A stretch of 42,545 nt of DNA from positions 1 through 42,545 of the forward strand of contig JAFVTO010000195.1 in the NCBI GenBank assembly GCA_017503165.1, given 5' to 3'. A program made the translations under genes and the position numbers. The notes beneath the pieces were generated by a model. The model worked only from the letters and a program-made list of their open reading frames with translations, was not told the DNA's origin and did no database searches. Below are positions 13,351 to 40,609 of this stretch, piece by piece. The number at the start of each line of letters is the position of its first letter. The first letter of the stretch is position 1. The stretch is from Clostridia bacterium. GTDB taxonomy: Bacteria; Bacillota; Clostridia; Oscillospirales; CAG-272.

Positions 13351-13351
13351 T

Positions 13352-19578: not shown

Positions 19579-19580
19579 TG

Positions 19581-20252
19581 TTACACTCTCCCAAACACAC
19601 ATTCAAATGCTTCTGCATAATTACATCCTGCCTGACAACCTCTGTAAGTAGCAAGAGCGCTAATTGCGTCCTTTGAGCGAGGATGAGGATAATCACGCAT
19701 CACACCTTTGTATGAAGCCAACGCTTCAAGTTTCACAGCCAGTCCTTCAGTTCCAATTTCAATAAAGTAATTTGGGGTAAAACGGTTTGCGGAGGAATCC
19801 AAAGACCATTCCGTCGAAGAGAGGACCTCCATATAGAGAAGCAGTTTCAAAGCCGGGATTCCCTCTTTACGCTGAAAGAGTCTTGAAGCTGCCTGCGCTG
19901 CGTAACTGGTCATAACATGGTCATTATTAGTGTCAGAAGGATGGTGTGTTATAATAGCTTCCGCACTGAAATCTTCGATGCATTTTTCTATAAATTGAAC
20001 AAGCTCCAGGTGCGGCACGGTATTCATACGTATGTTCGGAAAATCCGCCGCATAACACTCACAAACGCCCAGCTTCCCCATAGCACGGTTTTGATCATCC
20101 GACAATGTTGCAGAAATATTGGCACGTGCTGCAGCATGGTTTGCCATTGTACAAACGGCAACAGAGTGCCCTTCCTTGATTAACCGGTGTATCGTCGCTC
20201 CGGCACCCAATACCTCGTCATCCGGATGTGCGACCACTACTAAATAATTCAT
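19581..20252 (-). CDS. PIG-L family deacetylase
   Basis: VAHPDDEVLGAG, THHPSD.N.DH, YAEAF; GAGGTG RBS. Confidence 0.92.
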   Translation of the reverse strand: MNYLVVVAHPDDEVLGAGATIHRLIKEGHSVAVCTMANHAAARANISATLSDDQNRAMGKLGVCECYAADFPNIRMNTVPHLELVQFIEKCIEDFSAEAIITHHPSDTNNDHVMTSYAAQAASRLFQRKEGIPALKLLLYMEVLSSTEWSLDSSANRFTPNYFIEIGTEGLAVKLEALASYKGVMRDYPHPRSKDAISALATYRGCQAGCNYAEAFECVFGRV

Positions 20253-23952: not shown

Positions 23953-24184
23953 CTCGGCATTACCGTCGTAACGGAATCATTTCACACTGTACATCTATTA
24001 TATGGTGAGATGTGTGAAATTTTCTCTGTTTTTTCTTTAATCGAATTTAAATATTACAAGTTTTCATTAAAAAAATACTAACAAAAAGCGGAAAAATTCT
24101 ATATACTTTAATCGTAGATTGGAGTGATCAAACCTTCCAAACCAAGGATAAAACAAAATCAAAAAAGAAAAGAGGAACAAACTC

Positions 24185-25669
24185 ATGGAAAAACAACCAT
24201 TGCTTGATGCCAACGGAAAACGCAAATTCGGCATGACCGACAAGCTCGCCTATGCTGCCGGTGACTTCGGCTGCAATATGAGCTTCGCACTCAAGGGCAC
24301 GGTTCAGACATTCTGGCTCGTTTACATGATGCTGGAAACAGGACTGCTTTCAGCGCTTCTTCTCGTCGTTCAGATCTGGGATGCAGTTAATGACCCGCTT
24401 ATCGGCTCATTGATAGATGCCGACCACAGAAGCTACAAGCTCGGCAAATACAGGACCTACATACTTATCGGCGCGTGCGGACTTCTTGTTGCAGGCTCGA
24501 TGGTATTCCTGCCATTCCCGAAAGCAGACACGGTAATCAAGGCAATTCTGTTCATTGTCGGATATGTGATATGGGATGCCTGCTATACCATTGCAAACGT
24601 ACCTTACGGCTCCATGCTCTCTCTTATCACCGAGGATGTCGGAGAAAGAGCTCAGCTTTCCACCTGGCGCTCAGTCGGCTCGATGGTCGGAAACATTCTT
24701 CCCAACATCATTCTCCCCATGCTTATCTGGAAAAAGGTATATGACGAAAACGGAAAGCCGGTTATAAACAAGCTCACCGGCAAGCAGGTAGAAGATCTGC
24801 TTGGAGAAAGAGTATTCTGGGTTGCTCTTATCATGGGTGTTCTTGGATTTATCGCCTTTATGTTCATGATCAAAAAGATCACTATTCGGGTTGACGAAAA
24901 CAGTGTCAAGACAACCGAGATCAAGAAATTCAATGTTTTGGAAGCCTTTGCGAACTTCATGAAGAACCGTCCTGCGCTGGGCGCGACAGTGGCAGCCATG
25001 GGTATGTTCCTCGGTATGCAGTCCGCCACCACCGCGAATACCATCATGTTTGCTACCCACTTCGGCATGGCATCACTTTCCGGAATAGTGCAGATGGTCG
25101 GCTTCCTGCCAATGTTCTTCTTCATGCCCTTCGTCAAGAAGATAGTTGAAAAATACGGTAAGAAGGAAGCCTCTGTGCTCGGCACGATCGTGTCCCTCGT
25201 CGGAGCGGGGATCATGCTTATCTTCCCCACCATCAGCAATATCAACCTTTCGCTTGCAGTATACATGATCGGTCTGATACTGTTCGGAATCGGAATGGGT
25301 GTATACACCTGCGTATCCTGGGCGCTCATGGGTGATGCCATCGACTACAACGACTGGAAGACCGGTAAGAGAGAGGAAGGTACCGTTTATTCGCTTCACT
25401 CCTTCTTCAGAAAGCTGGCGCAGGGTATCGGCCCCTCCATCGTCCTTCTTATAATGGGGGTTCTGGGATATAACTCTGACCTCGGCACGGTAGGACAGAG
25501 CGCAGAGACGGCAAAGAATATGTGCTGGCTGGTTGCAGTTCTCTATCTTGTAAGCGCGGTCCTTCAGTTCGTCGGAATAGCGTTCATCTACAATATCGAT
25601 AAAAAGACACTGGAAAAAATGAATACCGAGCTTGCAGCACGCAAGGCTGCAGAGGAATCTGCCGAATAA
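24185..25669 (+). CDS. GPH (glycoside-pentoside-hexuronide) MFS symporter
   Basis: YAAGDFGCN, WDAVNDPLIG, NVPYGSM, ERAQLSTWR, DAIDY....GKREEG; GAGGA RBS. Confidence 0.93.
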   Translation: MEKQPLLDANGKRKFGMTDKLAYAAGDFGCNMSFALKGTVQTFWLVYMMLETGLLSALLLVVQIWDAVNDPLIGSLIDADHRSYKLGKYRTYILIGACGLLVAGSMVFLPFPKADTVIKAILFIVGYVIWDACYTIANVPYGSMLSLITEDVGERAQLSTWRSVGSMVGNILPNIILPMLIWKKVYDENGKPVINKLTGKQVEDLLGERVFWVALIMGVLGFIAFMFMIKKITIRVDENSVKTTEIKKFNVLEAFANFMKNRPALGATVAAMGMFLGMQSATTANTIMFATHFGMASLSGIVQMVGFLPMFFFMPFVKKIVEKYGKKEASVLGTIVSLVGAGIMLIFPTISNINLSLAVYMIGLILFGIGMGVYTCVSWALMGDAIDYNDWKTGKREEGTVYSLHSFFRKLAQGIGPSIVLLIMGVLGYNSDLGTVGQSAETAKNMCWLVAVLYLVSAVLQFVGIAFIYNIDKKTLEKMNTELAARKAAEESAE

Positions 25670-25703
25670 TCGAACACTTATTCTGTGCATAATAAAAACA
25701 CAA

Positions 25704-25877
25704 GGCTCTGTCACCGAGGATGAATGATCAAGCTTTGGATAATTTGGCGAGGAAAATTTTAGGAATGACAAGTGTTTTGCGAAGGCACAAACTATTTGCG
25801 TGTCTGTAACTAAGCAAAGCTCGTAGGATTTCGCAGTATCTTTCCGCCAAAAATCATTCAGTTGAGGTGACAGATCC
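25704..25877. mobile_element. 174-bp MITE-like element with imperfect terminal inverted repeats
   Basis: Left end GGCTCTGTCACC..TGAATGAT, right end ATCATTCA..GGTGACAGATCC; no transposase. Confidence 0.5.
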
Positions 25878-25924
25878 AAACATAAAACCGCAGTGCATTA
25901 GTTGCTACTCAAGGAGAAAAACAT

Positions 25925-28183
25925 ATGAGAAATACCGTATCACTAAACTCCGCATGGGAGTTCTACAAGAATACCGCCGATGTAACCGCGCTTTCCGGAG
26001 GAGAAACTGTAAACCTCCCCCATTCCTGGAACGCCACCGACGGTCAGGATGGCGGAAACGACTATTTCCGCGGCACCTGCATCTATACGAAAAAGCTGAT
26101 AAAGAGCGAGCTCCCCTCGGCGGAGCGCTACTATCTTGAGATCCGCGGAGCAAACTCCTCCGCAGACGTTTATGTAAACGGAGAAAAGCTGGCTCATCAC
26201 GACGGCGGTTACTCCACTTGGCGAGTTGACATCACCGATAAGCTTGGCGAAACAGCAGAGCTGGCGATCGCAGTGGATAACGCGCCCAACGACAGAGTCT
26301 ACCCTCAGATGGCAGACTTCACCTTTTACGGCGGCCTGTACCGCGACGTAAATCTTATCTGCGTACCTGCCACCCACTTTGAGCTTGATTATTTCGGAAC
26401 CCCCGGAATTAAAGTAACCCCCACCGTAAAGGACAACGGCGCAAGTGTTGAGGTAGAGGTATATACAACAGAGCTCGGCGCGGACGACGAGATAGTATAC
26501 ACCGTCTGTCAGGCAGACGGTGCCGTAGTCGGAGAGTTCTCCGCAAAGGACAAGGTACACACCTTTGATATCAGCGACGTACATCTCTGGAACGGTCGCA
26601 AGGATCCCTATCTTTACACTGCAAGCGCAAAAATAGTAAGAAACGGCGAGGAGATGGACAGAGTTTCCGCTCGCTTTGGCTGCCGTACCTTTAAGATCGA
26701 CCCCGAAAGAGGCTTCATACTTAACGGTGAGGAGTATCCCCTGCGCGGAGTTTCCCGTCATCAGGACAGACTGGGCATCGGTAACGCCCTTCTTCCCGAG
26801 CATCACGCGGAGGACATTGAGCTTATAATGGAGGTTGGGGCTACCACGATCCGCCTTGCTCACTATCAGCACGATCAATATTTTTACGATCTTTGCGATG
26901 AAAAAGGACTTGTTATCTGGGCAGAGATCCCCTATATCTCCAAGCATCTTCCAAACGGTCGTGAGAACACCGTTTCCCAAATGAAGGAGCTTATAGTACA
27001 GAACTACAACCACGCATCCATATTCGTTTGGGGACTTTCCAACGAGATCACCATGAGCTCTGAAAACGATCCCAACCTTCTGGATAATCACCGCGTTCTC
27101 AATGACCTGGTGCACAAAATGGACAAGACAAGACTTACCACAATGGCATGCGTATCCATGTGCTCCAGTGATGCGGAATACGTCCGGATCCCCGACGTAG
27201 TATCCTACAACCACTATTTCGGCTGGTACGGTGGCGACACCAGTATGAACGGCCCCTGGTTTGACAATTTCCACGCAAAATTCCCAAGCAAGCCTATAGG
27301 TATCAGTGAGTACGGTTGCGAGGCGCTGAACTGGCACACCTCCAATCCGACTCAGGGCGACTACACCGAGGAGTACCAGGCGTACTATCACGAGGAGCTT
27401 ATAAAGCAGCTCTTTTCCAGAAAATACATCTGGGCAACCCACGTATGGAACATGTTCGACTTCGGCGCGGATGCCCGTTCAGAGGGTGGCGAAAACGGTC
27501 AGAACCACAAGGGACTGGTCACTATGGACAGAAAGTATAAAAAAGATGCCTTCTACGCATACAAGGCGTGGCTCTCAGATGATCCCTTCGTTCACCTTTG
27601 CGGAAAGAGGTACGTGGACAGAGTCGAGGAAATTACAAAGGTGACCGTTTACTCCAACCTCCCCGAGGTCGAGCTTTTCGCAAACGGAGAAAGCCTTGGC
27701 AAGAAGACCTCCGCAGACCACTTCTTCTACTTTGAAGTTCCGAATTCGGGAGAGACAACACTCACCGCTGTTGCGGGAGAATTTAAGGATGAGGGTGTCA
27801 TCCGCAAGGTCAGCGAAATGAACCAGGATTATATCCTGAAGGAAAAGGGCGCGGTGCTCAACTGGTTTGACGTTGAAGCTCCCGAGGGAAGATATTCTCT
27901 CAATGACAAGATCAGCGACATAATGGAGAGCTTCTTCGGCAAGCTTTGGTTTATCAGAACCATGCTCAGCATCAAAAAGCGCATGGATTCCGGCAAGAAC
28001 GGAGAGGAAAAGGTAGCCGGATTTGAGATGAGCGAGGGCATTATGAAGATGATGGGTGGATTCACTGTGCTCCGCCTTACCGGCATGATGAGCATGATGA
28101 ATCTGAATTTCACCAAGGAAGAGCTGCTTGCGATGAACAAAAAGCTCAACCGAATCAGAAAGCCCAAGCGCCTGAGAAAATAA
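25925..28183 (+). CDS. Glycoside hydrolase family 2 (beta-galactosidase/glucuronidase-like)
   Basis: HDGGYS, YGGLYRDV, LRGVSRHQD, IRLAHY, WGLSNE (acid/base), ISEYG (nucleophile), WNMFDF, NHKGL. Confidence 0.95.
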   Translation: MRNTVSLNSAWEFYKNTADVTALSGGETVNLPHSWNATDGQDGGNDYFRGTCIYTKKLIKSELPSAERYYLEIRGANSSADVYVNGEKLAHHDGGYSTWRVDITDKLGETAELAIAVDNAPNDRVYPQMADFTFYGGLYRDVNLICVPATHFELDYFGTPGIKVTPTVKDNGASVEVEVYTTELGADDEIVYTVCQADGAVVGEFSAKDKVHTFDISDVHLWNGRKDPYLYTASAKIVRNGEEMDRVSARFGCRTFKIDPERGFILNGEEYPLRGVSRHQDRLGIGNALLPEHHAEDIELIMEVGATTIRLAHYQHDQYFYDLCDEKGLVIWAEIPYISKHLPNGRENTVSQMKELIVQNYNHASIFVWGLSNEITMSSENDPNLLDNHRVLNDLVHKMDKTRLTTMACVSMCSSDAEYVRIPDVVSYNHYFGWYGGDTSMNGPWFDNFHAKFPSKPIGISEYGCEALNWHTSNPTQGDYTEEYQAYYHEELIKQLFSRKYIWATHVWNMFDFGADARSEGGENGQNHKGLVTMDRKYKKDAFYAYKAWLSDDPFVHLCGKRYVDRVEEITKVTVYSNLPEVELFANGESLGKKTSADHFFYFEVPNSGETTLTAVAGEFKDEGVIRKVSEMNQDYILKEKGAVLNWFDVEAPEGRYSLNDKISDIMESFFGKLWFIRTMLSIKKRMDSGKNGEEKVAGFEMSEGIMKMMGGFTVLRLTGMMSMMNLNFTKEELLAMNKKLNRIRKPKRLRK

Positions 28184-28299
28184 GCTAAACCCACAGATGG
28201 CCTCATAGTTCTGAACCTGAAAACTCATTTGTAAAGAAAATGCGGCGACAGTCAGAAAAAGACAGAGGATAAAAAATCAAGGTCGTCCTTTATGGGTGA

Positions 28300-28355
28300 T
28301 ACTCTGAAGAACAGAGTTTTAATTCACCAGAACACAGTACCTACCAACAGGAAAA
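28300..28355 (+). repeat. 56-bp degenerate direct repeat, copy 1
   Basis: 43/56 ungapped identity (hand count) with 42108-42163, ending in an identical ACCAACAGGAAAA. Confidence 0.6.
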
Positions 28356-28402
28356 GGGGCTGAGTCAATTGCTTTTTAACTAAGCGATGACTCAGCCCCT
28401 TT
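28353..28402. terminator. Stem-loop downstream of GH2
   Basis: AAAGGGGCTGAGTCA/TGACTCAGCCCCTTT 15-bp inverted repeat. Confidence 0.7.
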
Positions 28403-28484
28403 GATTGCGGAAGAGGGAGTTTTCATTACCCTGTTGAACAGGGAAGAATGGTAGTTGCTCTGTAGCAAGCCACTGCGTAACACC

Positions 28485-28523
28485 GATTGCCCAAAATGAC
28501 GCACCGCGTCGTTTTGGGCAATC
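28485..28523 (-). terminator. Stem-loop just after the giant gene
   Basis: GATTGCCCAAAATGACGC-acc-GCGTCGTTTTGGGCAATC near-perfect 18-bp stem. Confidence 0.65.
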
Positions 28524-28541
28524 TAATCCATGAGCTTTGGG

Positions 28542-31500
28542 TTATGAGTCTTTACTCATTTCCATCAAGCTATGAGCTACATATTCTGCGATCAATCGGT
28601 GTCCTGCAGAGTTAGGATGCAATCCATCCTCCATATAATATTCTCTTGTTTCCAGCAAGCTTGCATCCAAATCAAGATTCGAATACAAGTCAATTACGGA
28701 AACAGAATACTTTTCACACACATCCAATATGGCATTTACATATTCCTCAAGAGTATGGCCTGCACCATTAGGGATATAGTCAAATGTATGGGCTTCTCCT
28801 GTTGCAGAGTTTGTACCGAAGCCATATCTGTGAAGAGGCGTGATGAATACTAATTTGGAGTTTGGATATTTAGCCTGCAATGCGGGAATTATCACATTCA
28901 AAGCACCATAGAAGGATGTATCTGTCGTATCATCTATGGTACCGAGCGGTGTGTCATGACCGTAGTCATTTGTACCCATAAAGACAGTTATTAAGTCTGC
29001 TTCCGGGATTTCGTCATATCTGTTAATCAACGGATCATGTTCGATTCCGTAATCACTTGTAGAGCTTATACAGCTTCCGGCTATTCCCAATCCATCGGAG
29101 GAACCAAGCTCTAAGTAATCCTTTAAGAGCTCCCAATATTTTCTGTCATCACAATTCGTGCCTGCAGTTATACTGTCACCCACGAAGATAGCGGTCTTAT
29201 CTGTCCAAGGTCCTTTAACCGCTACTGCTTCGTTTGCAACAAAATACTTTGAGAACAAAACGTTGTCTGTATCACTTGTTATCATGATCATATCGCGCTT
29301 GATCTCATCAGCAGTTCTTATGTCACTGAATATGCTTGCTGAGTAAATTTCTCCCTTGAAGCTTTGAGCATTGATACGTGCGTCTGTTCCAATGTAGAAG
29401 TTACTTCCATCAAAAGGAACCTCGCAATCCAATGCTATAGTTTCATAAAGAACTCCGTCAATATACAAGCTACAGCTCAAGCCATCTATTGTAAATGTTA
29501 AATGAACAGCTTCATCAGAACGAACATCTGTATTAAACAGATATGAGTAGCTTACGTTATTAACCTTGTACCATAGACGAGGATTACCTTTAGTATAGAT
29601 TTCAAGGTTCATTCTTTCAGAAGCAGAGCCGTTGTAATTACCGAGAATTACGCCAGCTCTTTCTGTAATACCGGGGGAGAGCTTAAGCAAGATTTCAAAT
29701 GTCTTGGGATTCCTATCAAATGTACTATTGATCTTATAGTAGTCTTTTTCTGTCAATGCAGAGCCTGTGTTAAGATAATCATTCTTAATTATGCCGTTTG
29801 ACATATACGGAATATTGTAGTATCCGAGCACCCTTCCGCATTCATCGCAAACAACCTTTGCTGTTCCGTCAGTTGTAGGTGTTGTATCTGTAATAACCTC
29901 AAACTTACCCACTTTATGGAGATTTGATATATCAATATCCTTAGGATTGATATAATTAACAGATGCAAGCGCATTATCCTTATTCACAAATACCATATCC
30001 TGCTTGATTTCTTCTTCGCTTCTTGCATTATCAAAGAGATTTACAGAATAGATAGTTCCCTTGAAGTATTCTGTATTATTCTTTCTGAAGTCTCCGCCGA
30101 TATGATATCCATATGTCGATTCGGGTAAAGGAAGCGCAAGCTCCTTAACCTCCGTAAGCTTGCCGTTAATGTAGAGAGATGCAATAGTTCCATCAACACT
30201 GAGTGCTACGTGAATCGGCGTATCGGAACGAACATCTGTATCAAACTTACAGTCAACGGTTTCTGTTCCGTTTACATAATAAAGTCTGAGTTTGCCTTCC
30301 TTGAATACCTCAAAGCTTACGATAGGCTTGCTCTTGAAGTTATTGCTCAGAATAATACCGCCACGACCATTACAGTCGGGGGACAACTGAATTACAACCT
30401 CAAATGTATGAGGGGTTCCATTAAGGTTACAAATCAAGCCTCCGTAGAGCTTTTCATTGAAGCTTTGTCCCTTAAATTCGTTTTCCACACCGCTTGAGGT
30501 GTAGTAAGCAGAATACACAAGTGCTTCATCGTCCTTGCTACCGTGAATAATATCGTTTACGATTTCTTCGCTTGTTCTGATGTTGCTGAACAACTGTACG
30601 GAGTAGATAGTTCCTTTGAAATACTGTGCATTATTCTGGCGATAGTCACCGCCTATTGCAAAGCCTTCTGTTACGGAAGGTACGGGAACGGCGAGAGTGA
30701 TGCTCTCAACGAATACACCGTTTACGTAAAGTGAAGCTACTGTACCGTCAAGAGTTACCGTTATATGAGTAGGCTCATCCGAACGGACATCGGTTGTGAA
30801 TGAGTAATCGTATTTTGTACCGTTTGCTATATAGAACAGTCTTAACTTTCCTTCCTGCAAAATTTCAAGGCTTATGGTGTCGCTATAACTTTCCGTATAG
30901 TTACTTAAAATCACACCGCCTCTTCCATCATATGCCGTAGGAAGCTGGATCAAAGCCTCTATTGTAGCAAATGCGCTGTTAAGCTTACCGATACCGTGTA
31001 CGGTGGTTGAATTGAACTTTGTACCGCTAAGAGTATTATCTGTTACGTATTCGTGTGCATTATTTGAAGTAAAGTACTTAGATATGAGAAGGTCTTCAGA
31101 ATTTCCACTAATGTATTCCTTATCAGCCTTTATCTCATCAGCACTTCTTACGTCACTGAATACAGAAACAGAGTAAATAGTACCCCTGAATTTTTGAGAA
31201 TTGCCTTCTCTGTTATCTCCGCCTATTACAAATCCATCGTGTACATCGGGTAAAGGATTATACACATCTACCGTTTCTGCAAGAACCCCGTCAACATACA
31301 AGTTAACAGTAGAGCCATCAACTGTTACAGCTATATGAACAGGAGTCTTTGAACGTATGTCGGTGTTAAAGAGAATATCTGTTCTTATACCGTTGGTAAT
31401 ATAGAACAGTCTTACCCTTCCTTCTGTAAAGATTTCAAGGTTTATAGCGTCATCATCATAATAAGAAGAATAATTTCCGAAAATAATGCCACCGCGGCCA

Positions 31501-34500
31501 TTCTTATTATACTGAACAGTTGCCTCTATAGTCACCGGTGTCTTTTGGATCGTTACAGGAATCGGAGCGTTATTTATAAAGCCTAAGCCGGTGTTGTTAT
31601 CCGGGTTCATGCCCTCGACTGTGTGCTTTGTCTCTTCGGATTCAAGGAGCTTATGACAAACAACACATTCCTTATATCTGATTCCATTTTCAATAGGTGT
31701 TGCCACCTTTTCAACAATCCAATCACTGCTGTAATGCAGTGTTGTAATGACCTTCTGTTCCTTGCAGCAGGTACATTCTCTGTAGATCATTCCGTGCTCT
31801 GTTTCCGTAGCCTCTTTACGAATCTCATCACCGTAAGTATGTGTTACAACATCGGTAGTTGTGGAATACTTACCGATGGTTGAGAATATGCTGTTTGAAG
31901 CGCAAGTAGTTTCCTTGATTACCAGTGCAAAGTTTGGTTGGAAATACATTGAGCCGCTGTGGAAGTTACAGGAGTTAAGAAGAGACACGTAATAACGCTG
32001 ACCGTTCTTAACATAAGAGAACTGAAGATCCTTATTATGAACCTCTCCAAGCTCCCACTTGTTGATCGACTTGAATCCGATGTCAACACCTACTACAAGA
32101 TCGTCAAATGTGGTAGCATCAAAGGATTCCATATTTGCATAGATCTTATTGTTGGGATTCTTGTTGTTATGGAAAGCGTCTATGATCATCTGCTCGATCT
32201 GTGTGCCAAGGGGGAATTTACCTGAGTATTCAGCCGCATTGAATGTAAATACAATGTAATCCTCGGAATCATAAAGTTCTCTCAGATATTTGCAATATGG
32301 GTTATAAGTTTCATTCCATGAAAGTATATCGCCTGCAAAAGGGGTAAAATAGAACTCGAATACGTTATCATCCTTTGTTCCAATATAAACGATCTGCTCA
32401 TCCTCGGGGATTTCATCTCCTCTGCCAGCAAGAATAAGGTCGATCTGCTTTGTGGATCTTACGTTGATGATATTCTGGAATTCAATTATATGGTCCTTTT
32501 CCTCATACAGAGGCATAAGTCTTAAATAGTTTGTAGCAACGCGATAGATCTGCTCGTGATCGGAAATAATGGTCGCTGTCTGGAGTTTCCAGTTAGCATT
32601 GTATCCAGCATCCCTTATACCGTCAAGATTGGAGCTTGATGTCCATACCGCATTTTTATGAACGTTACCGTGCATATCAAGATAATGAGAAACGGCACAA
32701 AGCTTAACATGCATCATTTCTGAGCCGCTTATATCCCAATCATACTTTGTAAACGTAAGATAATCCGCTACCAATTTATCAGTTACGTATTCAGGATCGC
32801 AGGGGTCACTCATATGCTTTGTAAAGTATGGCTCGAGTCTGTCCTTTGACGTAAGAGGATAAGCTTCTTCATGAGCCATTACGTTTACATGTATTCCCAT
32901 TTTAGCTGCACAAACAAGGAGATAAGAGATACGAACAAATCCAAATTCATCATAATCCTTGGTAAGCTGACGCATATAACCGAAGTATCTGCTGTTACGG
33001 TTGATATTTACTGCTGCATCAACGGAGAATCTGTATGACGCAATGTCAATATATACCTCTTCCTCAGGGTTAGCCTGCTTATAAAGCATAGACTGGAATA
33101 TCATAAGTCCCTGACCTACGTTCATATTACCTTCTGGTCTGTAGTTCTGATATACGTAGGTATCAACGGTTACGTCATTACCGTTAATGTTTTTAAATAT
33201 AGTCTGCTCCCTGCTCATAAAGTTGGAGGACTTATCAAGAACAGGGAATGTATCGTATTTAGAGCTAATGAATCCGTCCTGTGAGTTTTCGGCAAGATTG
33301 AAGATCTCGTCAACAGATACGGGATTTTTGTGGGTTGTGGAAACAACACTTTCAATAGTTTCCTTATAATCCGTGTAGGAAGGAGCTTTATCCTGTATCT
33401 CGACTACAGCAACGAGGTTACCTTCTATTACAGTGCTCCAGTATTCATCGGTTATTTCCTCGGTATAGTCAAGATCGGAATAGGTTGATTTATTAAAGTT
33501 AACGGTAGCGTTTTTGGTATTGATCCAAAATACTTTTCCGCCTGATTCCACAGTATTGCCGGAAACCGTAAGACCAATTACATCAACTACAGTTCCCGCT
33601 TTTGTAACGTACATAAATCCGCCGTTTACCGCAGAGTTATCAGTTCCCGTGTTATTGTAGAATTTTGCAAGAGATTCTCCGGAAACGTAAATCGCACCGC
33701 CTACATTAGCTGCTACGTTGCCATCAAAATTACAATTTTGAACCTTTACTTCCTTACCGAATGTATAGATAAAGAGTGCGCCGCCGTTATCTGTTCTTGT
33801 GGCATTGCCTTTAAAGTTAGTATTGTAAAATTCTGCTGTTGCACCTTCATAGAGATATATACCTGCACCACTTGCAGCTGAACCGGTCTTGATATCACTG
33901 TTGTATATCTTTGTATCGCCAAATTTACTGTAAATAAAGCCACCGAAGGTTGCCATATTTTTGGAAGCCGTAATATCGTTAAGAACAACACTTGCATCTG
34001 TTCCTATGTATATACCACCACCCAAATAAGTATTATTCCTTGTAAATATACCGTTGTTTATTTCAAGCGAGCTTCCTGCAACAACACCGATAGCACCACC
34101 CGAGATTTCGGATTTGAGCCTTGTTGAGTTGGAAACGAAGGTAACGTCATTCATGTCAACATGGACACCGCCCGTAAGATATACAGCGCCGCCGTGATTA
34201 TTGGAATAGTTTGCTGAGAAGTCTGTTGCTCTTACGTTAAGCACATTGGTATCGCCCTCTATTGCGCGTCTGGTAGCATAGATGGCACCACCGCTTCCCA
34301 ATGATGAATTGCCCTTGAGTACGGAATCATTTACAATAACAGTACTGTTATTACCGTACGCGCTCGAATATGCAATGTAAATAGCACCTGCGTTGGTATT
34401 GGATGCGTTATTAGAAATAGTTGTATTATCCAACTCCAGTCGTGCGCTTCTTACGGAAATAGCACCTGCATAAGATGATGCGGTATTCGAATTGATCTTT

Positions 34501-37500
34501 GAATCCTTGATCTTAACAGTTGCATTACCGATCACATACATCGCTCCGCCTTCTCCGCTTGCAGTATTTTCCTCAAAGGTACAGCCACTGAAGCTGAGGC
34601 TGGACATATTATTTGTGTAAATTGCACCGCCGTTCGACGCGGAGTTTGCTATAAACTCGGAACTGAAAACATTCGAGATAGCACCGGATGTAAGCGACTC
34701 ATCAGTGTCAGTAAACACAGTGTAAGCACCGCCGTATGTAGCATTGTTAGATATAAAGCTACAGTTTTCTATCGTAACGATGCTGTGTCCGTAATCGGAT
34801 TCAAAGGTTTTGCTTGCATAAATAGCTCCACCGTATTGTGTAGAACTGTTATTAGAGAATGTGGTATTTCTGAGAATGAGCGTACCGCCTGCATAGATAG
34901 CACCGCCGCTACCAGACACTGTGGTATTATTATCAAAACTGCAGTTACCGTAGATAACTATACTGCTTTCACCGCTTGAGCAAATAACACCACCGCTTGT
35001 TGTACCTATGTTATCGCGGAATATTATCTGTTTATCACTTTCAAAGCCTATGTTAAGGTAACATGAAACGGACGAAGGCGAGTAGTATACAGCGCCACCC
35101 GATGTAAGGGCTTGGTTAGCTACAAATTCACCGCCATAGATCTTTACAATGTCGTAGTTATATACGATACCGCCGCGAGCTGCTTCATTGTACCGGAACA
35201 AACCGTCATAAATATTAAGGTTGCTCTGGTTATAGAACAAACCGCCTATGCTGGAAAGGCGTCCTTCTTCGTCAGTTGAGGTCTGCTCTCTTACTGAGTT
35301 ATTAGTATATGTGCCGCCATGTACGTTTACAGAACCCATTACGATAATAGCGAGCGATCCGCCTATACGCTCGGGTCTTGAAAGCCTGTACTTCGCATCA
35401 AGCGTCTTTTCGTTATTGTTCTTATGACAATTCCTAACGGTAAGGTTGTTGTAAAAATGTACTCTTGCACCGTTTACAACAAAGATAATAGAGCCGTGAA
35501 CGTCAACCGTCATATTGTCTTTGTTACCGTCAATTATAAGTAAATTATCAATGCTTGAGTTGGGATTACCGAGTGTTAAGGAAGCATCGCCCTTTGCAAG
35601 CATAGAGTTTACTCCATCAGCTGTTTCACCGACTACGAAGAATTCTCCGCCGAAATCGGGGGATCTTGTAATGACATGAGGAGCTGAGCTAAAGATAGTA
35701 GCACCGTAAGTAATGTAGTATGTACGGTCGATATCGAAATCAGAAACTATCTTTATGTACTTGGTTTTAGCTGCAATAGCATTTTCAAGCTCATCTGCGC
35801 TTGAAACCTCAACAGCAGAGCTTAGATCTAACCCGCCTGCATTTTCAGTTGCGGGGCTATTCGTTAAATCGTATTTAACAGTAAGCTTGCCGTAGAATGC
35901 GGAGAAAAAGTATGCGCTGTCAAGATTGGAGGTCTGTGCATCAATCCATGTCTTTTTATTAACGTAAACTGTTGCACCGGTATCGTTACCGTAAACGATA
36001 GGACCGTTATTTGCTGTATTATTTGAAACGGATATGCCATTGATAACTACCTCTGTATTGGTATCGGTAATATGCATAAATCCGCCTCTTAATGCAGAGT
36101 TAGAGGTTGCGCTTGTGTCGCAAAGCTCAATAATACTCTTTCCGCTTACACAGATCGCACCACCGAAGCCTGTTGCACTATTTTCTTTGAACGAACAATT
36201 CTGCGTAGTGGTTTTTGCACCGTTGGTGAAAAGATAGATCGCACCGCCGTCTGTTTCTGCGCTATTCGCCTGGAATAATGTGCTTACAATTTCTGCAGTT
36301 GCGCCGTCGCCCAGGCTTATTGCGCCACCGTTTGTTTCCGCGCTATTGAAAGTGAACTTTGATTCTCTTAAGAAAAGTGATGTATCCTCAACGTATATCG
36401 CACCGCCGGAATTGTCTGCGGAGCAAGCTTCAAATTCGGAGTAATTGATCGTAATATCAGAATCAAGAGCCGACACAGCACCACCGTTAAGATCAGCATA
36501 GCAAGACTCAAACGTGGTTGCTTCTACAGTAATGTCGCTGTTATGTGCATATATAGCACCGCCGTAGGTTGCATTACTTGAAGTAAACGTATCACCCGAT
36601 GCATCAAGTGATGAATGTTCAAGATATATAGAACCGCCGTACTCAGCAGAATTTGACGTAAAAACGTTATTACTTATGCTTAAAATCGAATCGCTAACAT
36701 ATATAGCACCGCCATTTACAGCTTCATTATCTTTGAAGGACGAGCTGTCTATTGCAGTGTTGAAACAAACAGTATAAATTGCACCGCCATTTTCTGCGTT
36801 ATTGGAGATAAACGATGTATTGGATACCGTAGTATCTGAATTAACGTCTATAAAGATCGCACCGCCGTTTGTAGCAGTGTTTTCCTGATATACACCTCCA
36901 AGTATGGAATTTCCTCCTACTGTGTAAATTGCTCCGCCCACGGTTGCGCTATTGGAGGTAAAGGTTCCACCTGCTATATTAACAGTTCCGTCCGTGATAT
37001 AAATTGCACCGCCGGCTTCAGCTGTGTTGGAATCAAATACTCCACCGTTTACAAAAAGAATTGATTCGTTATATATAGCCGCACCGGTTGTTGCGGTATT
37101 GGAGCTTATTTCACCGTCTGTTACGGTAAGGGTTCCGTTATTGTAAACAAGGCTTCCCGTATTATTCGTATAGCTTCCACCGATTATTTCAACAGTTCCT
37201 AAGTTGTTTATTATCTTTTCCTGCGTTGATGAATTATCTGTAATTGTACAGTTGAGAATTAATTGCCCACTCTCTTTAACTGTAATAACACCCGCTGTGC
37301 AGTTGTTGTTTGACACCGTTGCACTCTCGTACACGGTCACAGTTGCATTTGCATTAACGGAGATTGCAGATTCAGCATTTTCTATTCCCGAGCCGTTAAT
37401 AGTAATCAGATTCTTAGTTGCGTACCCCTCATTTCCAAACTCAAGGGAAACGGGAACTTCTTCACTGCCAACAGAGAACATGATTCCAATATAATCGTCA

Positions 37501-39695
37501 GCTCTTGCGATCTGTACGGGTGTAGTAGAGAATATTAACGTATCTGCCTTAACAAACAGTGTCTTGTTAAGTGTTATGTCATTTATAAGTTTAATAAGAG
37601 GAGCACCCTCGTTAAGTGCATTTTCAAGCTCATTCTGTGACTTGACAAGCACTGCAGTCCAAAGTCCATCTACAATGTCACCGTTATAATCCGTATAGCT
37701 TGGAATTCCGCTGTTTATTTCGGTTACGGTAAGCTTATTGTAAATAGCCCCAGACCAGTACGTACCGTCATACTCTTCCTCAATGTCAAGATCAATGTAA
37801 TTTGCTTTATTGATTGAAAGCTTAGCGCCTGCGGAGTTACCCCAGATGATAGGTCCGCCAACGGATGCCGTATTGCCGGAAACAGTCATACCGCTTATAG
37901 TAATAAGAGTACCGGTGGTAGTTGCATACAAGAAACCTCCCTTTGAAGCACTGTTATTAATAGCGGTTATGTTATAGAGCTTCAGATCACTCTTGTTGGA
38001 GACAAATATTCCTCCGCCCAAACCGTATGATAAGTTGTCAACAAAGGTACAGGAATGAATAATAGTTTCTACTGCGCCCGTATATATAAAGAGAGCGCCC
38101 GCGTTGGTTGTATTGGATTCTAAGCAAGCGTTGCCGGAAAAATATGTGCCGTAAACGCCTGTTACAGCAGACGTATACAAATACATGGCACTACCTGCGG
38201 TTGCCGTATTATTTTCTATGTTACTGTTGTATACTGAAAGTGTTGATGCCGTAGAATAAACAACACCGCCCTTACCGGATGCTGCGTTTTGTTGAGCATC
38301 AATTTTATTCATAACAACGTCTGCCGCGCCATTCATATAGATACCTGCGCCATTCGTAGCCTCATTGGATATAAACTTAACTTTGTCAAGCCTGGCTACA
38401 ACATAACCGGTTGTCTCGGAGCCTTCTGTGTAAACAGCACCGCCGTTTAGTGCAGAGTTTCCGGAAAATACGGTATTTGCAAGCATTATATCTGTAGTAA
38501 TGTTCAAGGTGTTATGTCCTGACGAAGCAATAGCACCGCCGTTTGATGTTGCAGTGTTATTATCAAACATACAATCCTGAGCACTTAAAGGTCCGTACTT
38601 ACCGCCGACATAAATTGCACCGCCTGTTTCTGCGGAGTTTCCACTGAACGTAGTATCCTGTGCAGTTACTCTGCCGGTTGAGTATATAGCACCGCCGTAT
38701 GTAGCTGCTGTGTTACCTGAAAAAACAACTCTACTCTCACAGTATTCGCTTACACCGCCAAGATATGTCTTTGCGCCAGAGCTTGTGGGAGCGTAGATAG
38801 CGCCACCTGCAGTTGAAGCTGTGTTATCCTTAATCGTAGCGTTATAAATGAATAGGGTACGGTAGTTATAGAAAACTCCTGCTCTTACAGCTGAGTTTCC
38901 TTCAAAAACACCGCCGTAAATATTCATAACCGCGTAGTTATAGAAGGCACCACCGTATGCGGATGTAGTAATTGAGCTATCAGTTGTACCTGAATTGTGT
39001 GAATATGTACCGCCGTAAATATTCATACAGCCATCTTTGGCTATTATGCCGACCGGACCGCCTATGGTAGAAACATTATTTGTGGGAAAACCGTGAATTG
39101 TGTCAAGAGTTCTCTCGTTGCCTGACTTATAGCAGTTAGTAGCCACAAAATCATTATAAAGGTCAGCCTGTGCGCCGGCACATACGAAAATAACTGAGCC
39201 TGTAACATCTACAGTCATATTTTCCTTATTGCCGTCTATAGTCAGCATGCTTGAGCCGTCGTCATCGTATCCGCCCAAGGAGAAGATTACTCCTGCTTCG
39301 CACAAGGTGTTGTCTACTTTCTGTCCAACTACAAACATATCACCTGCGAAATTTGCATTACGCGTCAACTTAACCTTCTCTTTACTGTAAACGATAGTAT
39401 TTTCGGTTATATAAAAAGTACGGTCAATTTCAAAATCCGCGGTGATGCAAATAGCATCAATACCGTCGCTCAAAGCAGCTTCCAGTTCCGCAGAGGTTGA
39501 AACATCCATGAATGTTGACGGGAACAAAAGCTCTCCGTCGTCATCATAAATTTCAGGACTTGCCTGTGTGAAAGGGACCTCATCCGATAATACGGAATCG
39601 CTCTCTTGCGCATATACAGACATTGGTAATACAGAAACGATCATTAGCAATGCCAATATTAATGCAAGGATTCGGTTTTTACGATTGATTTTCAT
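28542..39695 (-). CDS. Giant (3717 aa) secreted multidomain protein: Pmp-like beta-helix repeats, PLD-like region, 4 LamG-like domains, C-terminal SGNH/GDSL hydrolase
   Basis: Signal peptide (MKINRKNRILALILALLMIVSVLPMSVYA); dozens of FxxNxA..GGAIY repeats; HVK...WTSSSN and HNK...NSCN; four (R)GG(I/V)I..N/LEI...G..RL repeats; FVGDS, GTND, DGLHP; AAGGGAG RBS. Confidence 0.9.
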   Translation of the reverse strand: MKINRKNRILALILALLMIVSVLPMSVYAQESDSVLSDEVPFTQASPEIYDDDGELLFPSTFMDVSTSAELEAALSDGIDAICITADFEIDRTFYITENTIVYSKEKVKLTRNANFAGDMFVVGQKVDNTLCEAGVIFSLGGYDDDGSSMLTIDGNKENMTVDVTGSVIFVCAGAQADLYNDFVATNCYKSGNERTLDTIHGFPTNNVSTIGGPVGIIAKDGCMNIYGGTYSHNSGTTDSSITTSAYGGAFYNYAVMNIYGGVFEGNSAVRAGVFYNYRTLFIYNATIKDNTASTAGGAIYAPTSSGAKTYLGGVSEYCESRVVFSGNTAATYGGAIYSTGRVTAQDTTFSGNSAETGGAIYVGGKYGPLSAQDCMFDNNTATSNGGAIASSGHNTLNITTDIMLANTVFSGNSALNGGAVYTEGSETTGYVVARLDKVKFISNEATNGAGIYMNGAADVVMNKIDAQQNAASGKGGVVYSTASTLSVYNSNIENNTATAGSAMYLYTSAVTGVYGTYFSGNACLESNTTNAGALFIYTGAVETIIHSCTFVDNLSYGLGGGIFVSNKSDLKLYNITAINNSASKGGFLYATTTGTLITISGMTVSGNTASVGGPIIWGNSAGAKLSINKANYIDLDIEEEYDGTYWSGAIYNKLTVTEINSGIPSYTDYNGDIVDGLWTAVLVKSQNELENALNEGAPLIKLINDITLNKTLFVKADTLIFSTTPVQIARADDYIGIMFSVGSEEVPVSLEFGNEGYATKNLITINGSGIENAESAISVNANATVTVYESATVSNNNCTAGVITVKESGQLILNCTITDNSSTQEKIINNLGTVEIIGGSYTNNTGSLVYNNGTLTVTDGEISSNTATTGAAIYNESILFVNGGVFDSNTAEAGGAIYITDGTVNIAGGTFTSNSATVGGAIYTVGGNSILGGVYQENTATNGGAIFIDVNSDTTVSNTSFISNNAENGGAIYTVCFNTAIDSSSFKDNEAVNGGAIYVSDSILSISNNVFTSNSAEYGGSIYLEHSSLDASGDTFTSSNATYGGAIYAHNSDITVEATTFESCYADLNGGAVSALDSDITINYSEFEACSADNSGGAIYVEDTSLFLRESKFTFNSAETNGGAISLGDGATAEIVSTLFQANSAETDGGAIYLFTNGAKTTTQNCSFKENSATGFGGAICVSGKSIIELCDTSATSNSALRGGFMHITDTNTEVVINGISVSNNTANNGPIVYGNDTGATVYVNKKTWIDAQTSNLDSAYFFSAFYGKLTVKYDLTNSPATENAGGLDLSSAVEVSSADELENAIAAKTKYIKIVSDFDIDRTYYITYGATIFSSAPHVITRSPDFGGEFFVVGETADGVNSMLAKGDASLTLGNPNSSIDNLLIIDGNKDNMTVDVHGSIIFVVNGARVHFYNNLTVRNCHKNNNEKTLDAKYRLSRPERIGGSLAIIVMGSVNVHGGTYTNNSVREQTSTDEEGRLSSIGGLFYNQSNLNIYDGLFRYNEAARGGIVYNYDIVKIYGGEFVANQALTSGGAVYYSPSSVSCYLNIGFESDKQIIFRDNIGTTSGGVICSSGESSIVIYGNCSFDNNTTVSGSGGAIYAGGTLILRNTTFSNNSSTQYGGAIYASKTFESDYGHSIVTIENCSFISNNATYGGAYTVFTDTDESLTSGAISNVFSSEFIANSASNGGAIYTNNMSSLSFSGCTFEENTASGEGGAMYVIGNATVKIKDSKINSNTASSYAGAISVRSARLELDNTTISNNASNTNAGAIYIAYSSAYGNNSTVIVNDSVLKGNSSLGSGGAIYATRRAIEGDTNVLNVRATDFSANYSNNHGGAVYLTGGVHVDMNDVTFVSNSTRLKSEISGGAIGVVAGSSLEINNGIFTRNNTYLGGGIYIGTDASVVLNDITASKNMATFGGFIYSKFGDTKIYNSDIKTGSAASGAGIYLYEGATAEFYNTNFKGNATRTDNGGALFIYTFGKEVKVQNCNFDGNVAANVGGAIYVSGESLAKFYNNTGTDNSAVNGGFMYVTKAGTVVDVIGLTVSGNTVESGGKVFWINTKNATVNFNKSTYSDLDYTEEITDEYWSTVIEGNLVAVVEIQDKAPSYTDYKETIESVVSTTHKNPVSVDEIFNLAENSQDGFISSKYDTFPVLDKSSNFMSREQTIFKNINGNDVTVDTYVYQNYRPEGNMNVGQGLMIFQSMLYKQANPEEEVYIDIASYRFSVDAAVNINRNSRYFGYMRQLTKDYDEFGFVRISYLLVCAAKMGIHVNVMAHEEAYPLTSKDRLEPYFTKHMSDPCDPEYVTDKLVADYLTFTKYDWDISGSEMMHVKLCAVSHYLDMHGNVHKNAVWTSSSNLDGIRDAGYNANWKLQTATIISDHEQIYRVATNYLRLMPLYEEKDHIIEFQNIINVRSTKQIDLILAGRGDEIPEDEQIVYIGTKDDNVFEFYFTPFAGDILSWNETYNPYCKYLRELYDSEDYIVFTFNAAEYSGKFPLGTQIEQMIIDAFHNNKNPNNKIYANMESFDATTFDDLVVGVDIGFKSINKWELGEVHNKDLQFSYVKNGQRYYVSLLNSCNFHSGSMYFQPNFALVIKETTCASNSIFSTIGKYSTTTDVVTHTYGDEIRKEATETEHGMIYRECTCCKEQKVITTLHYSSDWIVEKVATPIENGIRYKECVVCHKLLESEETKHTVEGMNPDNNTGLGFINNAPIPVTIQKTPVTIEATVQYNKNGRGGIIFGNYSSYYDDDAINLEIFTEGRVRLFYITNGIRTDILFNTDIRSKTPVHIAVTVDGSTVNLYVDGVLAETVDVYNPLPDVHDGFVIGGDNREGNSQKFRGTIYSVSVFSDVRSADEIKADKEYISGNSEDLLISKYFTSNNAHEYVTDNTLSGTKFNSTTVHGIGKLNSAFATIEALIQLPTAYDGRGGVILSNYTESYSDTISLEILQEGKLRLFYIANGTKYDYSFTTDVRSDEPTHITVTLDGTVASLYVNGVFVESITLAVPVPSVTEGFAIGGDYRQNNAQYFKGTIYSVQLFSNIRTSEEIVNDIIHGSKDDEALVYSAYYTSSGVENEFKGQSFNEKLYGGLICNLNGTPHTFEVVIQLSPDCNGRGGIILSNNFKSKPIVSFEVFKEGKLRLYYVNGTETVDCKFDTDVRSDTPIHVALSVDGTIASLYINGKLTEVKELALPLPESTYGYHIGGDFRKNNTEYFKGTIYSVNLFDNARSEEEIKQDMVFVNKDNALASVNYINPKDIDISNLHKVGKFEVITDTTPTTDGTAKVVCDECGRVLGYYNIPYMSNGIIKNDYLNTGSALTEKDYYKINSTFDRNPKTFEILLKLSPGITERAGVILGNYNGSASERMNLEIYTKGNPRLWYKVNNVSYSYLFNTDVRSDEAVHLTFTIDGLSCSLYIDGVLYETIALDCEVPFDGSNFYIGTDARINAQSFKGEIYSASIFSDIRTADEIKRDMIMITSDTDNVLFSKYFVANEAVAVKGPWTDKTAIFVGDSITAGTNCDDRKYWELLKDYLELGSSDGLGIAGSCISSTSDYGIEHDPLINRYDEIPEADLITVFMGTNDYGHDTPLGTIDDTTDTSFYGALNVIIPALQAKYPNSKLVFITPLHRYGFGTNSATGEAHTFDYIPNGAGHTLEEYVNAILDVCEKYSVSVIDLYSNLDLDASLLETREYYMEDGLHPNSAGHRLIAEYVAHSLMEMSKDS

Positions 39696-40054
39696 AAATA
39701 TCTCCCTTCTTGAAATACCTAATCGTTATTTACAGTATAACACAGTATACCATGAAATACAATATAAAGTGGGATTTTTTTGCAGATAGTGACATACTTG
39801 CCAGAATGTAACTACCCATTTTCGCTTTTATGTCGACAACTGCAGTGCCTGTAAGGAAAAAAGACAAGGCTCTGTTGAAAATAAAAAGAATCGCCCCTTG
39901 TATAAAGGTAACAAAGCGACTGAGGGATTGTTTGATGTAGTTTTAATCTTTGGATCTGTCACCGAGTATGCCTGACCAATCCTTTATAATCCCTCTTTAA
40001 CGGCAATTCGTCATAAATTGAAGCCTTAGGGCTTCATGATTTGAACGCACCGGG

Positions 40055-40609
40055 TCACGGATGGGCTTCCTTAAAGAGACGATTGTTCTCAACCAGCTCA
40101 TCGAAGGTCACCGGCTTCATTCCGTTTATATCCACCCCCGCGTTGAGCACGCGTTCACGGGCTCTGATAAGGGGCCAGAAATCATCCGATGTGTCATCGT
40201 GAAGATGTCCGTGTATCATGTAGCTTTTTTTTGCCCGCTTCCATGTGAGCAGAGGATAATGACACAGGGTCATTCCCCGCTGACCGTCGGATATTTCAAG
40301 CATATTGCTCACGCTTTGAAAATACTGTGAAAGATCCACCTTATTTATCCATGATCCGTCATGATTACCGAGGATAAGGTGCTTTTTGCCCTTAAGACGG
40401 GAGAGAACTCCCTCCACATCCGCGGCGCGAAAGAACATATCCCCCAGAATATAAACCGTATCGTTTCCGCTTACGCGCTCATTCCAATTTCTGATAAGAG
40501 TCTCGTTCATTTCCTCAATGGACGAAAACTGCCTTCCGAATTTCAAAACGTTTTCGTGCCCAAAATGAGTGTCCGAAATAAAAAAAATCTTCTTTTGTTC
40601 TCTTGCCAT
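40055..40609 (-). CDS. Calcineurin-like metallophosphoesterase
   Basis: SDTHFGH, LGD, GNHD, HYP, HGHLH. Confidence 0.9.
   Translation of the reverse strand: MAREQKKIFFISDTHFGHENVLKFGRQFSSIEEMNETLIRNWNERVSGNDTVYILGDMFFRAADVEGVLSRLKGKKHLILGNHDGSWINKVDLSQYFQSVSNMLEISDGQRGMTLCHYPLLTWKRAKKSYMIHGHLHDDTSDDFWPLIRARERVLNAGVDINGMKPVTFDELVENNRLFKEAHP

Follow-up and report, generated by a model that had tools for sequence, protein, structure and literature searches.

A giant secreted protein of uncultured gut Clostridia joins a Pmp-type beta-helix stalk to a predicted divergent PLD-superfamily domain, LamG modules and an SGNH hydrolase

Contig JAFVTO010000195.1 of a Clostridia bacterium, analysed here over its whole length of 42,545 nucleotides (the window) and forming one of the 248 contigs of a 2.15-Mb metagenome-assembled genome (MAG; GCA_017503165.1, 82% complete), carries on its minus strand a single open reading frame (ORF) of 3717 codons. 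The encoded protein of about 400 kDa consists of an N-terminal stalk of 2,080 residues, made of polymorphic membrane protein (Pmp)-type beta-helix repeats, and a C-terminal head of 1,600 residues with enzymatic and binding domains. At the center of this head lies a domain of about 455 residues, which structure prediction and motif conservation identify as a divergent member of the phospholipase D (PLD) superfamily with an intact catalytic set, for which there is no curated model. We consider it very probable that this anatomy, and the catalytic capacity of the two enzymatic domains, have been read correctly. Furthermore, based on the recurrent association of the PLD-like domain with LamG modules and with a second hydrolase, we tentatively propose that the protein is a stalk-mounted extracellular phosphodiesterase and O-acyl esterase directed at glycan-associated phosphodiester substrates. 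While each of its domain types is already known, the PLD-like clade, which comprises 144 sequence clusters and matches no Pfam or NCBIfam model in the window protein, its strict pairing with a Pmp-type stalk, and the exchange of the second enzyme among its members are new or undescribed. The features of the gene and its product are as follows:

28542..39695, minus strand: whole ORF, 3717 aa plus stop codon, one open frame
39702..39708, minus strand: Shine-Dalgarno sequence AAGGGAG, 7 nt 5' of the ATG, as read from the sequence
39609..39695, minus strand: Sec signal peptide, aa 1-29 (MKINRKNR, hydrophobic core, VYA/Q)
37656..39608, minus strand: beta-helix module 1, aa 30-680, Pmp-type GGAI/FxxN repeats (Chlam_PMP 59.5 bits; 34% identity to module 3, E 8e-78)
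35820..37655, minus strand: beta-helix module 2, aa 681-1292 (Chlam_PMP 76.1 bits, Beta_helix 40.1 bits; 32% identity to module 1, 29% to module 3)
33366..35819, minus strand: beta-helix module 3, aa 1293-2110 (Chlam_PMP 64.1 bits)
33219..33365, minus strand: linker and N-terminal helices preceding the PLD-like fold, aa 2111-2159 (model confidence low at aa 2100-2122, the first 23 modelled residues)
31848..33218, minus strand: predicted divergent two-lobed PLD-superfamily domain, aa 2160-2616 (AlphaFold2 model, Foldseek, VIA-align, motif conservation)
Minus strand, within the preceding domain: candidate catalytic residues from motif reading, H2329 (32709-32711), K2331, N2356, H2553 (32037-32039), K2555 and N2577
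31611..31847, minus strand: two tandem His/Cys mini-domains, aa 2617-2695, with the motif H..T-x4-G-x5-C-x2-C..H
31056..31610, minus strand: LamG_3 domain 1, aa 2696-2880 (Laminin_G_3 profile)
30471..31055, minus strand: LamG_3 domain 2, aa 2881-3075 (Laminin_G_3 profile)
29910..30470, minus strand: LamG_3 domain 3, aa 3076-3262 (Laminin_G_3 profile)
29766..29909, minus strand: third His/Cys mini-domain, aa 3263-3310, with the same H..T-x4-G-x5-C-x2-C motif
29232..29765, minus strand: LamG_3 domain 4, aa 3311-3488 (Laminin_G_3 profile)
28545..29231, minus strand: SGNH/GDSL hydrolase domain, aa 3489-3717 (Lipase_GDSL_2, PF13472, 74.8 bits against a cut-off of 32.9)
Minus strand, within the preceding domain: SGNH catalytic residues from motif and alignment, S3508 (29172-29174), G3540, N3576, D3690 and H3693 (28617-28619)

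Much of this layout had been anticipated by an earlier reading of the bare sequence (the original prediction), which listed a signal peptide, about 2000 residues of GGAI/FxxN beta-helix repeats, a PLD-like region, His/Cys repeats, four LamG-like domains and an SGNH hydrolase with intact GDS, GTND and DxxH motifs on a secreted, adhesin-like multi-enzyme with lectin-like modules. The domain evidence given below agrees with all of these, save that the PLD-like region, which its predicted fold and conserved motifs bear out, has no direct profile match. Its further statement that the combination was unrecognised holds in that our literature search, which did not extend to supplements, found no description of the giant architecture and in that the listed homologues are all hypothetical proteins; with 160 homologues the architecture is, however, not unique.

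The PLD-like domain escapes detection by sequence profiles: aa 2100-2625 match no Pfam family even at E<=10, PLDc and PLDc_2 included, nor any NCBIfam model, and searches of PDB sequences with phmmer and with a family profile yielded nothing beyond chance, among which we count profile matches to odorant-binding proteins at E 0.7-0.9. However, an AlphaFold2 model computed on a 39-sequence alignment (predicted local distance difference test, pLDDT, 91.2; predicted template modelling score, pTM, 0.91) recovered exclusively PLD-superfamily structures at the top ranks of a Foldseek search, the best being the Serratia PLD 7e0m (E 1.1e-10, probability 1.00), with 151 matches at E<=0.001. Structural superposition with VIA-align ranked vaccinia F13 first (Z 23.1, root-mean-square deviation (rmsd) 3.8 Å over 304 aligned residues), followed by Escherichia coli PssA (Z 22.8, 3.3 Å, 320 residues), Serratia PLD (Z 22.6), PLD3 and PLD4 (Z 21.4-20.8), PPK1 C-domains (Z about 20), and human PLD1/2 and Streptomyces PLD (Z 15-19). 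As the top rows tie, the fold identifies the superfamily alone and does not name a substrate. An ESM Atlas look-up again gave PLD-like neighbors, which serve as leads rather than as tests.

The canonical HKD signature of the superfamily reads HxK(x)4D(x)6G[ST]xN. The giant protein contains just two HxK motifs, at H2329 and H2553, both inside the PLD-like region, and each is followed by the Asn of the signature (H2329-x-K2331...N2356 and H2553-x-K2555...N2577). In the 39-sequence alignment W2320, H2329, K2331, N2356, D2358, D2443, P2452, H2553, K2555 and N2588 are invariant, the H, K and N positions of the two motifs being conserved without or almost without exception, and the H, K, H, K quartet is retained in 222 of the 224 relatives whose rows span both motifs. 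The two exceptions (P0189 and P0193), in which PLD-like and LamG domains occur with or without a Metallophos domain, have their HxK residues replaced and may be degenerate, non-catalytic copies. The domain resembles the two-HKD PLD enzymes in its bilobed fold over about 450 residues (Z 23-20, rmsd 3.3-4.4 Å, 300-336 aligned residues) with one HxK...N motif per lobe, but differs from them in sharing only 7-13% identity, in lacking the HKD Asp, in its longer spacing from Lys to Asn, and in residing inside a 3,717-residue secreted protein.

As there is no direct profile match, the assignment of this domain to the PLD superfamily is based on structure prediction together with transitive homology. 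A HMMER search of 1.84 billion representative sequences gathered 144 clusters at 50% identity (124 of them at E<=1e-10), among them secreted proteins of about 500-600 residues in which the domain stands alone. When 25 stand-alone or short relatives were compared with Pfam, PLDc_2 appeared at E<=0.1 in seven, and its 27-bit cut-off was passed by the two most distant of them (P0224, 40.1 bits; P0240, 45.4 bits); five carried LamG and Metallophos domains, and one distant relative (P0215) an SLH domain. Because no curated profile marks the PLD-like domain, a gene of about 11 kb is labelled hypothetical in every MAG that contains it.

We then considered the relatives of the giant protein and their genomic arrangement. 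A search with aa 2100-3717 returned 160 homologues of 2,044-6,505 residues, all from Oscillospirales MAGs of the gut, of which 120 were listed; these are all unnamed or annotated as "hypothetical protein [Clostridia bacterium]", and counts over 120 below refer to them. The closest 14, which come from independent assemblies, are collinear with the window protein including the SGNH domain and 54-70% identical to it over the C-terminal 1,618 residues. By precomputed Pfam assignments PF13472 is present in 22 of the 120, the others ending with four to six LamG domains. In addition, a genome scan for related loci, from which we retained the best 80 of 111 confirmed, led exclusively to uncultured gut MAGs (Acutalibacteraceae, Oscillospiraceae, Ruminococcus, Faecousia and "Clostridia/Eubacteriales bacterium"), many of them from the hindgut of sheep, goat and deer. 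Grouped by the length of the open frame, these loci comprise 37 fused giants of the form found in the window, 29 mid forms with a signal peptide, PLD-like, Big_2, LamG and Metallophos domains, and with or without fn3 or dockerin domains, and 14 short forms of about 570-620 residues, some of which end at a contig edge.

Among the 43 mid and short loci, 37 retain at least 1 kb of upstream sequence, and in 36 of these 37 a homologue of the stalk is encoded directly upstream on the same strand. The upstream stalk ORFs reach at least 2,595 residues and are 25-33% identical to the window stalk (E down to 3e-93); in the sole exception (L040) the protein has a shorter Pmp segment of its own as a fusion. 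Hence, the PLD-like enzyme is either fused to a beta-helix protein or encoded directly after one. Given that 37 of the 80 loci are fused and 36 of the 37 evaluable others have the two genes adjacent, this genomic pattern argues that stalk and enzyme are functionally coupled. No flanking gene family other than the stalk recurs in more than five of 81 loci, and consequently the wider context offers no clue to the substrate. In four loci (L047, L061, L071 and L079) the PLD-like ORF follows the stalk stop codon in frame, with no further stop. Read-through from stalk to PLD-like domain was considered and rejected: L079 has a ribosome-binding site and a TTG start after the stop, as in ordinary adjacent genes with tight operon spacing.

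The split operons (L041-L081, from Acutalibacteraceae, Oscillospiraceae and Ruminococcus MAGs) share with the window gene a PLD-like domain of the same clade (37-46% identity), a homologous stalk and LamG domains. They differ in using two genes rather than one, in having a GpdQ-like metallophosphoesterase in place of the SGNH domain, and in the lipoprotein signals or dockerins found in some of them. A PDB sequence search with one mid form (P0150) gave no matches; the predicted structure of the mid-form Metallophos domain (pLDDT 83.2) is closest to GpdQ (Z 21.4, rmsd 2.7 Å over 228 aligned residues). Dockerins occur in one homologue by precomputed assignment (P0117), at the N-terminus of one stalk protein (L047) and at the C-terminus of two enzyme proteins (L043 and L075), and in P0147 the PLD-like domain is joined directly to an SGNH domain. 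LamG domains are present in nearly all forms of the family. At two loci (L077:2552-9491 and L079:2601-9491) both the stalk and the PLD-like protein have a lipoprotein-type signal at the N-terminus, with a Cys behind the hydrophobic core, and then a linker of low complexity that is acidic or rich in Pro; in the N-terminal part of the stalk, the His/Cys mini-domain known from the window protein is repeated. As each of these proteins has a lipoprotein signal of its own, the two might be co-anchored without binding each other directly.

The stalk itself is recognized by several models (Pfam Chlam_PMP, PF02415, 78.9 bits, and Beta_helix, 64.8 bits; NCBIfam TIGR01376 POMP_repeat, 159 bits over 10 stretches) and contains 27 GGA[IVLMF] motifs between aa 248 and 1999. 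It is composed of three complete homologous modules, which align pairwise end to end with 29-34% identity (E 1e-45 to 2e-77); a PDB sequence search with module 1 gave no matches. At the DNA level its repeats have a period of 75-81 nt and are 60-83% identical. Beta-helices rise by about 4.8 Å per rung. With this usual rise and the observed repeat period, the stalk would comprise about 80 rungs of 25-27 residues each and form a rod of approximately 35-40 nm. The repeats are of the same type as those of the chlamydial Pmp and other GGA(I/L/V)-FxxN beta-helix passengers (Chlam_PMP and TIGR01376, with a match to the right-handed Beta_helix model). In contrast to the chlamydial proteins, however, the present one comes from a monoderm Clostridia MAG, has three tandem modules and fused C-terminal enzymes, and ends in an SGNH domain instead of an autotransporter barrel. 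As the original prediction had noted, no recognizable attachment device accompanies the stalk: a regular-expression scan of the giant protein found no LPxTG sorting signal, and SLH, dockerin and autotransporter families were absent from its Pfam scan at E<=0.1.

Within the head, Laminin_G_3 scores 187.9 bits in total over four stretches, and the four copies are 36-49% identical to one another; the LamG block found no match in a PDB sequence search. The three His/Cys mini-domains, two ahead of the first LamG copy and one between the third and the fourth, attract at most weak, sub-threshold zinc-ribbon-type matches in Pfam and may bind zinc. A T-x4-G-x4-6-C-x2-C motif occurs at equivalent positions in 100 of the 120 listed family members.

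The C-terminal SGNH domain has its GDS motif at residue 3506, GTND at 3574 and DGLH at 3690, and over about 210 residues its blocks I, II, III and V match those of PDB 3DC7 (E 4.5e-31) and 7BXD (E 1.5e-28). The first of these, the closest relative of solved structure, is LpSGNH1 of Lactobacillus plantarum, which is reported to be an acetylesterase acting on p-nitrophenyl (pNP) acetate, acetyl xylan and glucose pentaacetate or sugar acetates (PMC10189120), and the second is a GDSL-like protein from Collinsella aerofaciens (PMC12115436); both are stand-alone proteins of about 230 residues, unlike the domain described here, with which a giant protein ends. Further matches are SGNH domains of staphylococcal phage tail proteins (6v8i and 8egr), a group dealt with in PMC7048315. 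A match to the NCBIfam model for TesA/lysophospholipase L1 (E 3.9e-4) lies far under its cut-off. Taken together, these relatives make an esterase for short O-acyl groups of the acetyl type more plausible than a lipase. All of 17 aligned relatives retain the Asn, Asp and His, and the nucleophilic position is Ser in 14, Gly in two and a gap in one. The two close homologues with Gly at the equivalent of window position 29172-29174 (two of 16 aligned) retain Asn, Asp and His. The GDSxTxG pattern is missing from two close homologues, P0003 and P0011, in which the esterase may be inactive.

In light of these observations we posit the following mode of action. The beta-helices would serve as a rigid stalk, spacer or scaffold that holds the head away from the cell, and the LamG modules would dock the head onto a glycan-rich surface. 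There, the PLD-like domain would cut a phosphodiester through a covalent phospho-histidine intermediate, as is the general mechanism of the superfamily, and the SGNH domain would strip short O-acyl esters of the acetyl type off the same substrate. The purpose could be the scavenging of phosphate and carbon or the weakening of a competitor's envelope. The recurrence of an acetylesterase-type SGNH domain, a GpdQ-like phosphodiesterase, LamG domains and dockerins as partners points to a substrate in a glycan context that contains ester as well as phosphodiester bonds. Moreover, the near-universal LamG domains, the kinship of the SGNH domain with LpSGNH1, its matches to phage tail proteins and the dockerins of relatives favor glycans over lipids. 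On these grounds the best fit is with teichoic-acid-like polymers or phosphoglycans, followed by phospholipids, and we suggest, as a possibility short of a probable one, that the substrate class is a phosphodiester polymer associated with glycans or walls, for example a phosphoglycan or a teichoic-acid-like poly(glycerol/ribitol phosphate), supplied by digesta or by other microbes. A functional parallel is offered by Bacillus subtilis GlpQ and PhoD, extracellular teichoic-acid phosphodiesterases that free phosphate from wall polymers, PhoD being a member of the metallophosphoesterase superfamily. The likeness is one of function only: their folds are unrelated to the PLD-like domain, and they are without stalk, LamG and SGNH domains. 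More specifically, the 455-residue domain might found an unmodelled PLD clade that in gut Oscillospirales is obligately paired with Pmp-type rods and depolymerises phosphodiester-linked wall glycopolymers as a PLD-type "teichoicase" or phosphoglycanase, with an SGNH de-O-acylase or a GpdQ-like phosphodiesterase as interchangeable second enzymes. We consider this version unlikely; if true, bacteria of the herbivore gut would have in it a new enzymatic means of attacking one another's envelopes or of mining phosphate. The stalk coupling, the swap of the second enzyme between SGNH and GpdQ-like domains and the occasional dockerins make the family a tractable model of enzyme display far from the cell in uncultured gut Clostridia and a candidate for a new substrate specificity inside the PLD superfamily.

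Several observations weigh against this proposal. The evidence on the substrate is all indirect. The fold matches of the PLD-like domain tie lipid enzymes with nucleases, a shared fold does not show function, and our literature search found no PLD-superfamily enzyme acting on teichoic acids. The Asp that should follow the Lys by four residues in the HKD signature is missing from both motifs, which have Ser instead (HVKLCAVS and HNKDLQFS). The PLD-like domain is acidic (isoelectric point, pI, 4.9; 61 Asp and Glu versus 39 Lys and Arg), which is not expected of a domain that binds polyanions like DNA or teichoic acid. The GpdQ-like domain is absent from the window's own protein, and where it does occur GpdQ is tied, to within about 1-2 Z units, with cyclic nucleoside monophosphate phosphodiesterases, purple acid phosphatases and SMPDL3, Lmo2642 and Rv0805 also lying no more than about 2 Z units away. 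With no anchor found, the protein may just be released rather than held off the cell. Finally, the PLD-like domain was detected in only five of 200 other genomes of the window's family (five of 97 genera), and in neither of two genomes of the same genus that are 95-96% complete; the giant gene is thus accessory, and a distribution this patchy says nothing of purpose.

Some of the same evidence can be read in favor of lipids. The protein might be a membrane-attacking effector or a lipid scavenger, in which the PLD-like domain is a phospholipase D or transphosphatidylase and the SGNH domain a phospholipase A or lysophospholipase, the two removing head groups and acyl chains from plant, host or competitor membranes. 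Several of its top structural neighbors act on phospholipids (F13, Z 23.1; PssA, Z 22.8; Serratia PLD, Z 22.6 and first in Foldseek as 7e0m), the GDSL/SGNH family includes lipases and lysophospholipases, there is the weak TesA/lysophospholipase L1 match, and GpdQ, which the partner domain of the relatives resembles, hydrolyses deacylated phospholipids, so that a PLD, an acylhydrolase and a glycerophosphodiesterase would make up a complete phospholipid catabolic set. However, the sequences nearest to the SGNH domain are acetylesterase-type or phage wall-associated rather than lipases, the four to six LamG modules and the dockerins indicate glycan surfaces, and the secreted PLDs of the Streptomyces type score only about Z 15, under F13, PssA and PLD3. 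Moreover, the protein has no hydrophobic or membrane-insertion segment beyond its signal peptide, its long uncharged runs being confined to the beta-helix repeats. We therefore regard a role in membrane attack or lipid scavenging as somewhat doubtful. The original prediction had called the two folds "lipid/ester-hydrolysing" and had named membranes or acylated glycans as targets; the PLD and SGNH folds stand, but this wording is too strong given that the PLD fold ties with the nucleases PLD3 and PLD4 and that LpSGNH1 is the nearest relative of the esterase with a solved structure, a kinship that favors acylated glycans over membranes. Were the substrate an ordinary phospholipid, the protein would be a large but conventional secreted phospholipase/esterase.

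The tie with the 5' exonucleases PLD3 and PLD4 (Z 21.4-20.8) also raises the reading of an extracellular nuclease like Nuc or PLD3/4, which would harvest nucleotides or phosphate or remodel matrices of extracellular DNA, and the metallophosphoesterase superfamily represented in the relatives includes nucleotidases and Mre11 (Z 15-17). Yet these rank well under GpdQ, Rv0805 and the purple acid phosphatases, the acidity of the PLD-like domain speaks against it, and neither an SGNH esterase nor LamG lectins have an obvious role on nucleic acids, which makes a nuclease quite improbable. Pmp-type repeats and LamG domains are common hallmarks of adhesins, and this, along with the Gly in place of the SGNH Ser in two of 16 close homologues and the loss of the PLD-like His and Lys in two of 224 rows, would suit a protein that is mainly an adhesin or structural fibre with its PLD-like and SGNH domains serving as non-catalytic binding modules. 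Against this, 222 of 224 rows preserve the PLD-like quartet, all 17 preserve the Asn, Asp and His of the SGNH domain and 14 of 16 its Ser, and every one of these residues is intact in the window protein; as such conservation in both domains argues for selection for catalysis, we hold a purely structural role to be very improbable. The proposal of a stalk-mounted phosphodiesterase and esterase on glycan-associated substrates is the one we favor.

The ORF is a real, intact gene. The source is a fragmented MAG and the gene is repeat-rich, and the matching Logan contigs are short (at most 1.5 kb), none spanning the gene, which might suggest an assembly chimera or mis-joined repeats in place of one gene. 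However, the same domain order appears on contigs of up to 245 kb in many independent assemblies, including the closest 14 collinear homologues, the internal DNA repeats are just 60-83% identical, which makes their collapse in assembly unlikely, and no joints or indels were seen in matching contigs of four sequencing runs. As the family displays the same architecture on independent contigs, a chimera can be excluded, and we assign it a negligible probability. In two runs from other studies than the probable source (X2 and X3), all 30 bins of positions 28000-40300 were covered at >=99% identity by pieces without differing letters, indels or joints; since these pieces do not exceed 1.5 kb, the coverage attests to the presence of the sequence in other samples and not to its contiguity. 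Contigs of X2, X3 and a further run (X5) leave the window sequence at shared positions (30572, 31884, 33154, 34058, 35776 and 37374) and continue with identical, unlike sequence. This suggests that a related gene or strain variant shares segments with the giant gene, possibly through recombination between giant paralogues.

The gene has a strong ribosome-binding site, the Shine-Dalgarno sequence listed above, and a non-coding gap of 345 nt 5' of the ORF; a scan for promoters and terminators gave a result no better than that for shuffled sequence. Its product begins with a classical Sec signal peptide of the signal peptidase I type, with cleavage probably after VYA. Among the 120 listed homologues a crude regular expression for this pattern (MK..R-hydrophobic-LP..A.A) found 106, with four others being lipobox-like and ten having none or a truncated start. 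The G+C content of the giant ORF is 0.40-0.43 versus 0.46-0.51 in the adjoining genes.

None of the neighbors in the window, namely a metallophosphoesterase, an acyltransferase, a GH2 unit and a polysaccharide cluster, is conserved beside the homologues. Directly upstream of the giant gene, on the same strand, lies a gene for a 184-residue metallophosphoesterase (40055-40609, minus strand) which has no signal peptide, appears cytoplasmic and probably has no kinship with the Metallophos domains of the secreted mid forms; the acyltransferase gene is also upstream. Just downstream, positions 22708-28183 encode an AraC-family regulator (minus strand), a GPH/MFS_2 glycoside transporter (plus strand) and a GH2 glycosidase with a DUF4982 domain (plus strand), which likely constitute a sugar-utilisation unit. 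Eight kb from the giant gene, positions 8004-20252 (minus strand) hold a polysaccharide-biosynthesis cluster of low G+C content (0.35-0.42). It codes for a Wzx-type flippase, a Wzy-like polymerase, a pyruvyl transferase, three GT2-type and one DXD glycosyltransferase, an ATP-grasp protein, an epimerase, an initiating sugar transferase and a PIG-L deacetylase, and has a gene for a DctM-like transporter inside it.

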